This document shows, in pieces, positions 4,884-35,763 of a DNA stretch of 36,051 nt. Origin of the DNA: a virus (lineage: Duplodnaviria > Heunggongvirae > Uroviricota > Caudoviricetes); IMG/VR virus record IMGVR_UViG_2579778871_000005; one strand, 5' to 3'. The position numbers and the translations under genes were made by a program. Under the pieces are notes generated by a model. It was not told where the DNA came from. It ran no database searches and was given only the letters and a program-made list of their open reading frames with translations. Numbering within the stretch: the stretch's first letter is position 1; each line of letters opens with the position of its first letter.

Positions 4884-5991
4884 CGCTCACCCCGGCGATG
4901 GTCACATCAATTGCGGTACACTGCGCCCACTCATGCGCCGCCAGCACTCGTTTGGCAGGCGTTTCCAGCGCCACGTCATAAACTCCCGCCACCTGCAACA
5001 CCTTGATGATTTGATTGGGGACGATATCCAGCCCCAGATGGCGCTCGCGTTCTGCCGTCCAGTCGGCGATGGCCCGCCGCGCGGCAAGCAGGGTTGAGTC
5101 CTGATCGGCTTTAGTGAACAGCGTGAGTTGCGCGTTAATCTGATATGCCACGCGGAGTGGTTTCTTCGCGCTCACCTTATCTGTCAGTGGGCGCTTTTTC
5201 TCTTTGCTGACGTCCTGTACCACCTGTGCGAGCAGTTCGTCTCCGGGCAGGCCGTCCTGCGTCAGCGGGTAAATCTCCACGCAACCTTCATCCAGCCCTT
5301 CATCCGGGCCGAGGATGGCCACGTCGATAATCGCCTGACTGACCGACAACGCATGAAAGCGGTACGCGCCATAACTGCCCGCGTTGCTGAAGCACTCCGG
5401 GGCCAGCCGGATACGCTCACGCAGGGCGTCGTCACCCTCATCGGCACATCCACCGCCTGAAGCAGTAATGTTCGTTACCTGCAAATCCACGCCCGCCACG
5501 CTGTCTACCAGTGCGCTAATCTGCGCCGGTTGCCAGTCATTACCAGGCTCACCAGCGGTGGTACAGGTGGCAGTCACATCCACGCTCAGGCTTCCGGCAG
5601 GCAGCAGCACGTCATCATCGGTGGCAAACATCACGCTGTTAGAGGCGCTGGCGCGGGTTCCCTCCGGGATCAACACATTGCGCTTTTGCGCCTTGGCAAC
5701 GGAGAATTGCAATGTGGTCTGCGCCGCTTGTGCGGGCAGGCGCTTCACACCCACCAGTTCGCCGAGATAATCGAGCATTGGCGCACGGGAAAACGCCACA
5801 AGGTTCTGCTTTGCCGCTTCCTGGATGCCGATGCGTACAAGGTTCTCACGGTAGGCAAAGACGTCTATCAGCAGCCGCTCCGCCTGCGCCGGATAGAGCG
5901 TTTTACCGCTGGCCGCTTCATACTGCGCAATCATCTCGCTGGTAATTTGCGCCGGGTCGCGGTCGATAAAATCGGGTTCATCTAACGCCAT
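4876..5991 (-). CDS. Baseplate protein, P2 gpJ-like
   Basis: 371-aa ORF downstream of the W-like gene; size and synteny (V-W-J-I-H) match a P2-type baseplate; assignment by synteny and general similarity. Confidence 0.7.
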   Translation of the reverse strand: MALDEPDFIDRDPAQITSEMIAQYEAASGKTLYPAQAERLLIDVFAYRENLVRIGIQEAAKQNLVAFSRAPMLDYLGELVGVKRLPAQAAQTTLQFSVAKAQKRNVLIPEGTRASASNSVMFATDDDVLLPAGSLSVDVTATCTTAGEPGNDWQPAQISALVDSVAGVDLQVTNITASGGGCADEGDDALRERIRLAPECFSNAGSYGAYRFHALSVSQAIIDVAILGPDEGLDEGCVEIYPLTQDGLPGDELLAQVVQDVSKEKKRPLTDKVSAKKPLRVAYQINAQLTLFTKADQDSTLLAARRAIADWTAERERHLGLDIVPNQIIKVLQVAGVYDVALETPAKRVLAAHEWAQCTAIDVTIAGVSDG

Positions 5992-32081: not shown

Positions 32082-33206
32082 ATGCAGATTAAACAACAGT
32101 TGCGCCAGCGTGGCATCACTCAGGCAGCAGTAGCACAGGCTACCGGGGTTTCCGCAGCGGTTATCGCGCAGATGGTTAATCACGGCCTGTGGCCGAAAAC
32201 AGAAGAACTACGGGAGCGCATCAGCGCATTTTTGGCAGAAAAAGGTATTGAACTGAAAGTGGGACAGGCAGCGGCCACTGCCTGCCCCGATACCGCATCC
32301 ACAAGGGACGAAAATATGTTACTGGCAAAACAGGTATTAAATCCAGCGGCGAAGAAACATTTTGGGCTGTTCCGCGACCCGTTCGCTGATGAAGTCATGC
32401 AGAGCGCGGACGATGTATTCACCACGCCGGATATCCGTTATGTGCGCGAGGCGCTGTACCAGACTGCGCGTCACGGCGGGTTTATTGCGGTGACAGGTGA
32501 ATCCGGCGCAGGGAAAACCACGCTGCGCCGTGACCTGGCTGACCGCATCAACCGCGAAAACGCGCCCGTTATCATCATCGAGCCGTATATCATCGCGATG
32601 GAAGACAACGACGCAAAGGGTAAAACCCTGAAAGCTGCCGCCATAGCAGAAGCCATCATCAACACCATCGCGCCGCTGGAGAACGTCAAACGCTCGCAGG
32701 AGGCGCGTTATCGCCAGTTGCACCGGGTGCTAAAGGAATCGGCCCGTGCCGGGTTCTCACATTGCCTTGTTATCGAAGAGGCGCACTCGCTGCCGGTGCC
32801 GACGCTCAAGCACCTGAAACGCTTCTTTGAGCTGGAAGATGGCTTTAAGAAACTGCTGTCGATAGTGCTGATTGGTCAGCCTGAACTGAAGCTGAAACTG
32901 TCCGAACGTAATCAGGAAGTGCGTGAAGTGGTTCAACGTTGCGAGGTTGTCGAACTGCTGCCGCTGGACAACTATCTGGAATCGTTTCTGGCGTTTAAAT
33001 TTCAGCGTGCCGGAAAAGGAGTTTCAGAGGTGCTGGATGATAGCGCCGCCGATGCTATCCGCGCCCGGCTGTGCAATTCATCCCGACGCGGTGACGTCAG
33101 TCTGCTGTACCCGCTGGCGCTGGGGAATCTGGTTATCGCTGCAATGAATCTGGCTGCTGATATCGGCGTACCCGTAGTGAATGCCGATGTGATTAAAGGA
33201 GTGTGA
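32082..33206 (+). CDS. Transposition ATPase (Mu B-like AAA+ protein) with N-terminal HTH
   Basis: 374-aa ORF; Walker A ..VTGESGAGKTTL.. and Walker B-like ..HCLVIEEAHSL..; N-terminal HTH-like segment (..LRQRGITQAAVAQATGVSAAVIAQMVN..). Confidence 0.8.
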   Translation: MQIKQQLRQRGITQAAVAQATGVSAAVIAQMVNHGLWPKTEELRERISAFLAEKGIELKVGQAAATACPDTASTRDENMLLAKQVLNPAAKKHFGLFRDPFADEVMQSADDVFTTPDIRYVREALYQTARHGGFIAVTGESGAGKTTLRRDLADRINRENAPVIIIEPYIIAMEDNDAKGKTLKAAAIAEAIINTIAPLENVKRSQEARYRQLHRVLKESARAGFSHCLVIEEAHSLPVPTLKHLKRFFELEDGFKKLLSIVLIGQPELKLKLSERNQEVREVVQRCEVVELLPLDNYLESFLAFKFQRAGKGVSEVLDDSAADAIRARLCNSSRRGDVSLLYPLALGNLVIAAMNLAADIGVPVVNADVIKGV

Positions 33207-33208
33207 AA

Positions 33209-33337
33209 ATGGTATTTCACAAATTAACCGGAAAGGACGTGATGCAATACCGCAAGATATCGCTGGCTGACCGTTTTGTATTATGGGCCAGCGCTATAAC
33301 TACACTGATTTTTATATTCATAGCCTTATTTAATTAA
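33209..33337 (+). CDS. Possible 42-aa single-TM peptide (below the ORF-track size cutoff)
   Basis: ATG at 33209 preceded by AAGGAG (33196-33201); translation MVFHKLTGKDVMQYRKISLADRFVLWASAITTLIFIFIALFN; lies in the 200-bp gap after the ATPase gene. Hand-translated. Confidence 0.3.
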   Translation: MVFHKLTGKDVMQYRKISLADRFVLWASAITTLIFIFIALFN

Positions 33338-33408
33338 TTCAGGTCGCAGAAAAATGCCGTCAACCCGGCAGGCTTCGCACACCCTGAAATCACCCTGGAG
33401 ACTATTTT

Positions 33409-34026
33409 ATGACTGAAAAAACTATCCCCGCAGGTTACTGGCAGGACGCCAAAGGTTGTCTGGTTCCCGAGTCTATGATCAAGCCCATTGACCGCGCACG
33501 CGATGCGCTGGTGAAGGAGATCGTCGCCGACGCAATGAAAATGAATGCTGAATTACTTGAGTTTAAAAACCGCTGTTTTGGCGATATACAGGCGTTTATT
33601 GATTTGTCCGTTGAACAATATGATGCCCGCCCCGGAGGCAAGAAAGGCAACATCACCCTGCATTCATTTGATGGTCGCTACAAGATCCAGCGCCAGATTG
33701 CCGAAAACATCGCCTTTGATGAACGGTTACAAGCCGCCCGTAACTTGATTGATGAGTGCCTGCATGAGTGGACGGCACAGGCCACGCCAGAGCTGAAGGT
33801 CATTGTGGAGAAAGCATTCGCAGAAGATAAAGAGGGCAACATCTCCACCGGGCGCGTACTGGCGCTGCGCCGCTATGAAATCACCGACCCGCGCTGGCTG
33901 AAGGCGATGGAGGCCATTGGCGAGTCGGTACAGGTGGTGAACTCAACAAGTTACGTGCGGGTTTATCAGCGCATCGGTGATAGCGATAAATACCAGCCCG
34001 TCGTGCTGAATATTGCGGGGGTGTGA
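33409..34026 (+). CDS. DUF3164-like early protein
   Basis: 205-aa ORF in the semi-essential early region; size and position match the DUF3164 proteins common in Mu-like phages; assignment by recollection. Confidence 0.5.
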   Translation: MTEKTIPAGYWQDAKGCLVPESMIKPIDRARDALVKEIVADAMKMNAELLEFKNRCFGDIQAFIDLSVEQYDARPGGKKGNITLHSFDGRYKIQRQIAENIAFDERLQAARNLIDECLHEWTAQATPELKVIVEKAFAEDKEGNISTGRVLALRRYEITDPRWLKAMEAIGESVQVVNSTSYVRVYQRIGDSDKYQPVVLNIAGV

Positions 34027-35614: not shown

Positions 35615-35649
35615 TGAAACGAGGTCGTAATGATGTTGGCCTCGTTTCA
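35615..35649. repeat. Inverted repeat (10-bp arms TGAAACGAGG / CCTCGTTTCA, 15-bp spacer) at the prophage right end
   Basis: Read directly from the sequence; starts 5 nt after the mor stop; the right arm ends in CA at 35649 and overlaps the 9-bp word TTTCAGTAT also present at 473-481. Confidence 0.5.
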
Positions 35650-35763
35650 GTATCTGAAAAGCAATTACAGAAACCGTCCCGTTAAAACTCACCTCACCCC
35701 ATCTAATCCCATAATTATCGTGCAGATGATGGTGGGTTTATCTCACTTCTGATTAGGAAGCGT

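Follow-up and report, generated by a model that had tools for sequence, protein, structure and literature searches.

The window, by which we mean the whole 36,051-nucleotide stretch of DNA that was analysed, contains a complete BcepMu-like transposable prophage of Escherichia coli, and its insertion adjoins ybjC. The minus strand carries the late genes of the prophage and the plus strand its early arm. The early arm starts with the repressor/Ner region and continues with a DUF3102-like gene, the rve transposase gene, the B-like AAA_22 ATPase gene, the small gene described here, the DUF3164 gene, genes for small proteins, GemA and Mor, after which host DNA follows. This order (A, B, peptide, DUF3164, ..., GemA, Mor) is the layout of the BcepMu early arm, which runs from gp10 to gp01 and to the end of the genome. 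The window B protein is 55-82% identical to the B proteins of BcepMu-like prophages, and phage matches to the B region are annotated as DNA transposition protein or transposase B. The prophage is carried by two of 5426 complete E. coli genomes. The features around the small gene are collected in Table 1.

Table 1. Features of the window between the ATPase gene and the DUF3164 gene
Feature	Position	Strand	Basis or remark
B-like transposition ATPase gene, 374 aa, N-terminal HTH + AAA_22	32082..33206	+	Pfam AAA_22, E 1.4e-20
Shine-Dalgarno site AAAGGAG	33195-33201	+	sequence; 7-nt spacer to the ATG
Small gene, 42 codons + TAA	33209..33337	+	sequence; homologues P0001-P0008; dN/dS; third-position substitutions
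Codons 1-22, hydrophilic, net +3, predicted cytoplasmic, signature H-K-L-T-G-K-D-V-M-Q-Y-R-K	33209..33274	+	
Codons 23-41, predicted C-terminal transmembrane helix FVLWASAITTLIFIFIALF, then one residue (N42)	33275..33331	+	Kyte-Doolittle; AlphaFold2
71-nt spacer with the ribosome-binding site of the next gene (GGAG 33397-33400)	33338..33408	+	travels with the peptide gene
DUF3164 gene, 205 aa, next gene of the early operon	33409..34026	+	Pfam PF11363, E 1.8e-82

As read from the sequence, the gene starts with the ATG at 33209-33211 and stops with the TAA at 33335-33337. Its product is a peptide of 42 amino acids, MVFHKLTGKDVMQYRKISLADRFVLWASAITTLIFIFIALFN. The TGA of the ATPase gene (33204-33206) ends 2 nt before this ATG, and 202 nt separate the B stop from the DUF3164 start (33409). 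The initial annotation had described an ATG with a near-consensus ribosome-binding site and a 42-aa ORF after the B-like gene. All of this stands, except that the ribosome-binding site was placed in the gap between the genes; it lies within B, where it overlaps the last codons. Upstream of every homologue, in all gene contexts, there is a similar purine run (AAAGGAG, AAGGGAG, AAGGGGA, TGGAGGAAAGG or CAGGAGC). The gene had also been called unlisted, which is correct for E. coli. PGAP has no feature between the ATPase gene and the DUF3164 gene in strain A35, and RefSeq lists none beneath the peptide match in the second complete E. coli genome with the prophage either. The homologues of Lelliottia and Limnobaculum are listed at NCBI as hypothetical proteins.

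The ORF listing opens this frame at GTG 33203, which would give 44 aa. We rejected this start, since the triplet is GTA in the Lelliottia homologue (L004), whereas ATG 33209 is conserved. The internal ATG at 33242 was rejected as well. The amino acids of codons 1-11 are conserved and most changes in these codons are synonymous, so translation starts at 33209; moreover, the internal ATG lies downstream of the motif KLTGKDV. An antisense ORF of 34 aa (33217-33321) was discarded because the third-position bias fits the plus frame and stops close every other frame of the stretch.

The peptide gene is a gene of the early (transposition/replication) operon and is translated right after B. A scan with a simple consensus, which is hence not absolute, gave no sigma-70-like promoter on either strand between 32800 and 33600. 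Since the same 71-nt spacer precedes either the DUF3164 gene or Gam, with identical first codons ATGACTGAAAA, it marks a module junction. The spacer forms a weak hairpin whose RNA structure is not significant (z -1.2), and it matches no Rfam family. A minus-strand terminator-like site within it (33370-33355) is at no more than chance level.

Conservation of the peptide gene in BcepMu-like prophages

A search of 5.8 billion proteins returned 42-aa proteins at 98% and 83% identity, and a profile search returned four further homologues with 69-84% identity. Relatives of 45, 53 and 100 aa were added by an exhaustive HMMER search, and the copy of Lelliottia wanjuensis was found by an ATPase-guided scan of one genome per species. 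Every one of these copies lies in a BcepMu-like early arm. Further BcepMu-like prophages of Enterobacterales thus have homologues of 42-53 aa at this position, and their chromosomal insertion sites differ, as one would expect of transposable phages. All named sources of the peptide are Enterobacterales, and all 34 fetched relatives from named non-Enterobacterales taxa are without it.

The genes next to the peptide gene vary. The order is B, peptide, DUF3164 in the window and in the fetched loci L084 and L085; B, peptide, Gam in L104; B, a 72-aa gene, peptide, Gam in L091-L093; B, peptide, an 88-aa gene, DUF3164 in L096 and L105; and B, peptide, Mor in L004 and L089. In the latter two, the Lelliottia prophage (L004:4130-5595) and a metagenomic one (L089:5051-6516), the early arm is reduced to these three genes. 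DUF3164, the MazG-like gene and GemA are missing, and the peptide gene is the only one kept between B and Mor. The extra 72-aa gene (MKDNPYTEHLKMARSHRKK...CWRKGYAC) between B and the peptide gene is found at 5793-6011 of L091, L092 and L093 and at 3-89 of L097. It overlaps the peptide start by 11 nt in L091-L093 and by 8 nt in L097. The N-terminus of the peptide differs in L091-L093 (MPASHF...), with the motif unchanged.

Judged from these versions, the ORF is almost certainly a real translated gene. The frame is open in seven divergent DNA versions, for which the Nei-Gojobori dN/dS is 0.07-0.39. Variable columns number 10, 11 and 28 at the first, second and third codon positions, of 39 each (chi-square ~12.5, p ~0.002), and the window differs from L004 at 7, 4 and 21 such positions, respectively. 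Both frame and length are kept at 69-83% protein identity in five gene contexts. In addition, gene callers independently predicted the gene in more than 20 assemblies. The DNA identity of the ORF is 82-83%, compared with 85-88% for the flanking B gene and 89-94% for the 71-nt spacer (L084, L092 and L104). Since the divergence of the ORF resembles that of the flanking B gene, its conservation is not simply that of a recently shared segment. The comparison of the DNA versions shows that the gene is under purifying selection.

It could still be argued that there is no gene here, i.e. that the ORF arose by chance in a spacer or is part of a conserved RNA or DNA element. The ORF is short, PGAP does not annotate it in E. 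coli, and it matches no Pfam or NCBIfam model. A length of 42 codons indeed proves nothing by itself; conservation does, and it points to more than chance. The codon-position bias, the low dN/dS and the frame and length kept across five contexts all speak against a non-coding element, as do distant homologues that share motif and architecture (see below). RNA structure was rejected as the cause of conservation, since none of the folding z-scores was significant (-1.5 for the peptide gene, -1.2 for the spacer and a further -0.6). The Rfam scan gave a snoRNA only, at E 0.32, which is noise. We consider the non-gene reading effectively refuted and leave it hardly any probability. The initial annotation had proposed conservation in related prophages as a check, and would have given up the gene had it been neither conserved nor equipped with a translation signal. 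Homologues were found at the same position, and the ribosome-binding site is strong.

Peptide architecture and a second subfamily

Residues 23-41 of the peptide have a Kyte-Doolittle 19-residue mean of 2.48. AlphaFold2, run on a 62-sequence alignment, predicted a single helix over residues 8-41 with a mean pLDDT of 80, rising above 90 in the hydrophobic part. Both results bear out the one transmembrane helix that had been predicted for the peptide. The ~19-20 hydrophobic residues at the extreme C-terminus and the positively charged segment in front of them are the marks of a tail anchor. According to this model, the peptide is very probably an N-in, tail-anchored inner-membrane protein. Its helix carries small residues in i/i+4 patterns (A27/T31 and S28/T32).

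In the PHROG scan the sole match of the peptide was phrog_11981 (49 positions, unknown function), with E-values of 0.0019 for the window, 0.00093 for P0004 (full length) and 0.062 for P0006. These scores are individually modest because the proteins are very short. A tblastn search against phages gave a 49-aa protein of Escherichia phage vB_EcoM-606R2 (URC08720.1), MKPEHLYRLTGRDVLRYRRKNFDLMTGLAVATALGLIITFILLVARTTV. With this protein included, the profile brought up 57 more clusters, which are 46-66 aa long (in most cases 46-49 aa) and come from E. coli, Salmonella, Citrobacter, Edwardsiella, Trabulsiella, Leminorella, Enterobacter and E. albertii. The bridging member P0056 (HRLTGNDVMQYRRIDPLSRAVL) has 14 of 22 N-terminal residues in common with the window peptide (HKLTGKDVMQYRKISLADRFVL). 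Over the 62 members of both subfamilies no change occurs at L6, T7, D10 or V11 and hardly any at G8, and the common N-terminal motif reads [HY][KR]-L-T-G-x-D-V-[ML]-x-[YWH]-[RQ]-[KR]. The transmembrane segment is conserved within each subfamily, but not between them. By its profile and member matches, and by the motif followed by a C-terminal transmembrane helix in 42-53 aa, the peptide belongs to the phrog_11981-type small membrane proteins. The family is already in the databases as a PHROG of unknown function and as proteins whose every source name is 'hypothetical protein'.

The phrog_11981-type proteins (MKPEH[LI][HY]RLTGRDVL.YRR...ILLVAR, 46-49 aa) are like the peptide in length class, in the basic LTGxDV N-terminus and in the C-terminal transmembrane helix. 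Like the peptide, they are encoded in early or replication operons of phages from this host order, and their genes are tightly coupled to a neighbouring one. Within the fetched loci BLASTP links the two with E-values from 4e-8 (to L098) to 5e-4. However, the overall identity is ~25-36% and the transmembrane sequences are unrelated in detail. The carriers differ as well, since those of the second subfamily are unrelated temperate phages with a CI-like repressor, a VapE-like primase, a DUF2800 nuclease, an Enc34-type SSB and DNA polymerase A. In the PolA-type phages the peptide gene opens the replication operon and its stop overlaps the start of a phrog_6784 gene, whereas in the transposable phage it follows B. 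The gene region of the second subfamily is present in 151 of the 5426 complete E. coli genomes (~3%). The peptide is the only protein common to both phage types in the 6-12 kb compared. These comparisons show the peptide gene as a module that moves between unrelated phage early regions.

Other searches were negative. There was no meaningful match in Pfam (E up to 10, all 62 members), NCBIfam, PADLOC or a PDB sequence profile; the best matches, PT-TG (E 0.06) and ribosomal proteins (E 0.05), were treated as noise. No match turned up in the plasmid collection, and the literature, searched in full text for the motif strings and for phrog_11981, yielded no paper. For the second-subfamily genes, promoter scans of the upstream DNA stayed at chance level. 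The string LTGKDVMQYRK presumably resembles the first helix of Cro/CI-type HTH domains; we made no use of this resemblance, which no Pfam match supports. On the strength of its sequence, the locus is a small phage early membrane-protein gene that had no annotation in E. coli. Small membrane proteins regularly escape annotation, and this one is absent from RefSeq in both complete E. coli genomes that carry it.

The slot after B and its relation to Kil

In phage Mu the gene kil (gp5, 74 aa) starts 18 nt after B. Its expression leads to spherical cells, and the kil locus is host-lethal (PMC3961180). The initial annotation found the position of the small gene suggestive because the genes right after B in Mu include the small host-killing gene kil. 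In 46 of the fetched relatives there is a family of 89-115-aa proteins ending in GC[RQ][IV]xW, encoded just downstream of B and in most of them directly after it. Examples are L002:3316-3585, L003:3316-3585 and L107:3607-3936, and the hosts are Enterobacterales, Pasteurellaceae and Pseudomonas. The genes of KP12, PhiKM and BcepMu (gp07) start 1-2 nt after B. BcepMu gp07 belongs to the family (hhalign probability 94.6%, E 7e-8), and the alignment of the family with Mu Kil covers 61 columns (probability 59%, E 9e-5). The family matches phrog_2041 strongly and phrog_6381 'Kil' weakly (E 0.006), and the C-terminal GC[RQ]IxW motif is common to the family and Mu Kil. From these profile comparisons the proteins are probable Mu Kil homologues, and among transposable phages Kil appears to be conserved much more widely than its annotation suggests.

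The peptide was rejected as a homologue of Mu Kil (hhalign probability 0.07%) and as a member of the Kil-like family (0.2% against a 14-member alignment). Like Mu Kil, BcepMu gp07, KP12_290 and the phrog_2041 proteins, it is a small early accessory protein encoded first after the ATPase B gene of the early operon. The Kil proteins, however, have 74-115 aa, the GC[RQ][IV]xW motif and no strongly hydrophobic stretch, whereas the peptide has 42 aa, no such motif and a hydrophobic helix predicted to anchor it in the membrane. The Kyte-Doolittle maxima are ~0.3-1.9 for the Kil-like proteins and 2.4-2.8 for the peptide, and the sequences are unrelated. What remains of the suggestion is the position itself: Kil-like genes do occupy the slot after B in relatives, but the peptide is not one of their kin.

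None of the 46 Kil-like loci has the peptide, and no peptide locus among the fetched relatives has a Kil-like gene. About two dozen fetched relatives have neither. This exclusivity is not phylogenetically independent, since the peptide loci represent a few related lineages. It hints at functional replacement, and the mutually exclusive placement gives a concrete, cheaply testable hypothesis. The slot after B may be a variable accessory position. In the Pasteurellaceae loci L053-L063 (Haemophilus, Pasteurella, Rodentibacter) the first gene after B, at ~5177-5383, encodes a ~67-aa lipoprotein (MRKTTLILTAFLLAGCDD...), and L048, L073 and L078 have other small transmembrane proteins there. Some of the relatives with neither gene thus have a lipoprotein or another small transmembrane protein in the slot, where small proteins aimed at the envelope seem to accumulate.

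Candidate functions of the peptide

The best explanation for the sequence features is that the peptide acts as an early-expressed, host-directed membrane effector, for which we estimate a probability of roughly 45%. The ~22 basic, motif-bearing residues would face the cytoplasm and the single C-terminal helix would span the inner membrane. During lytic development the membrane-held N-terminal helix would bind a host component where the inner membrane faces the cytoplasm, and the transmembrane helix may contact a host membrane protein with its small-residue face. In this way the peptide would reprogramme the cell envelope or the cell cycle for the phage. In the most specific version, which is one possibility, it would be a functional stand-in for the missing Kil-like gene and block division or elongation; that it inhibits division or cell shape specifically we regard as rather unlikely.

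A host target is suggested because the peptide is the only protein that the two phage types share in the regions compared. It is also suggested because the N-terminal motif is conserved across the subfamilies and the transmembrane segment only within each, and because the named sources are confined to Enterobacterales, with the 34 relatives from outside this order lacking the peptide. A comparable case is Gp11 of Staphylococcus phage PhiNM1, a small early phage membrane protein that blocks division and whose targets, MurG and DivIC, were found experimentally (PMC11237401). Like the peptide, Gp11 is a small membrane protein from an early gene, and its binding of envelope and division proteins is the kind of mechanism that we propose by analogy. 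However, the host of PhiNM1 is Gram-positive, and homology between the two is not expected. Against the effector function speaks that the Pfam, NCBIfam, PADLOC and PDB profile searches gave no similarity to any characterised protein.

The adjoining replication genes and the tight coupling to a neighbour in both phage types fit a phage-internal role equally well. The chances that the peptide is directed at the host rather than at a partner among the phage proteins are about even. Inside the phage it could be a membrane tether or regulator of the replication or transposition machinery, for example by anchoring the replisome, or the target DNA that B has bound, at the membrane, or it could tune the translation of its neighbour. 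It is embedded in the replication modules of two unrelated phage types, with a 2-nt gap after B here and a stop/start overlap with the phrog_6784 gene in the PolA-type phages, and in L004 and L089 no other gene is kept between B and Mor. However, the adjacent partners vary (B, the 72-aa protein, phrog_6784), no other protein is common to both phage types in the regions compared, and most BcepMu-like phages, BcepMu included, transpose without the peptide. We consider the phage-internal role improbable. If the peptide only anchors or fine-tunes a phage protein, its interest will be local to transposable-phage biology.

A role in superinfection exclusion or envelope modification would have the peptide block DNA entry, a receptor or an uptake function for competing phages. 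Its action would fall either early in infection, as with T4 Imm, or come from the lysogen, as with the small inner-membrane proteins of the HK97 gp15 type. A predicted single-pass inner-membrane protein of a temperate phage, encoded in a variable accessory slot, would fit such models, as would a family confined to one host order. The ~67-aa lipoprotein of the Pasteurellaceae and the small transmembrane proteins of L048, L073 and L078 in the same slot make it look envelope-directed. But expression in the lysogen is not expected, because the gene lies within a repressor-controlled early operon, has no promoter-like site of its own and, in vB_EcoM-606R2, is separated from the repressor gene by a strong terminator. 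In addition, the most conserved part of the peptide is the predicted cytoplasmic one, and only one residue would be periplasmic. Exclusion is an unlikely function on this evidence.

We give a similarly low probability to a membrane-damaging toxin, that is, a type-I-toxin-like, holin-like or abortive-infection peptide that oligomerises in the inner membrane, dissipates the proton-motive force and thereby stops the host. The type I toxins of E. coli include Hok, TisB, Ldr and Ibs/Sho. Like the peptide, they have fewer than 60 aa and a single hydrophobic inner-membrane helix, and they are often found on prophages, so its size and hydrophobicity fit this group. The small-xxx-small patterns (A27/T31 and S28/T32 here, G-x3-A-x3-G in the 49-aa subfamily) would suit a self-associating pore, and the host-lethal kil locus of Mu (PMC3961180) would be in keeping with a toxin. 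However, the simple consensus scan gave no antisense promoter, the Rfam search gave no antitoxin RNA, and the RNA folding was not significant. The peptide gene is translationally coupled within an operon and is not a stand-alone toxin-antitoxin transcript. It lies between the ATPase gene and the DUF3164 gene, not in a lysis cassette beside an endolysin gene, and the holin and SLT genes of L089 are on the opposite arm. Finally, the part conserved across the subfamilies is the hydrophilic N-terminal motif, which argues for specific binding and not for generic membrane damage.

The host-directed effector could be taken one step further. The LTGxDV tail-anchored peptides would then be a previously unrecognised, horizontally mobile class of early effectors in Enterobacterales, each inhibiting one specific essential host machine that lies in the inner membrane or is associated with it. 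A cytoplasmic helix of ~15 residues held at the membrane would inhibit, for example, a component of the divisome, the elongasome or the lipid II pathway, and the peptide would have replaced an ancestral Kil gene in this Mu-like lineage. We think this generalisation quite unlikely. If true, it would provide a new minimal peptide inhibitor whose target is defined, and also a lead towards the target of Mu Kil. With 42 aa, one motif and one predicted helix, the peptide is in any case a short and tractable candidate for a function in host takeover by phages.

Two further observations concern the prophage itself. The prophage of E. coli A35 is otherwise identical to that of the window, with one extra G in each of two G-runs near window positions ~32072 and ~32144 (5172 and 5245 of L001). 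Because of these two extra Gs, PGAP calls the A35 B gene a frameshifted pseudogene. They represent either homopolymer sequencing errors or a genuine inactivation, and the window B gene is intact (374 aa). At the end of the prophage, 20 nt after Mor, there is a 40-aa ORF (35630-35752, plus strand), which is called at the same offset in L085-L087 (8422-8544).
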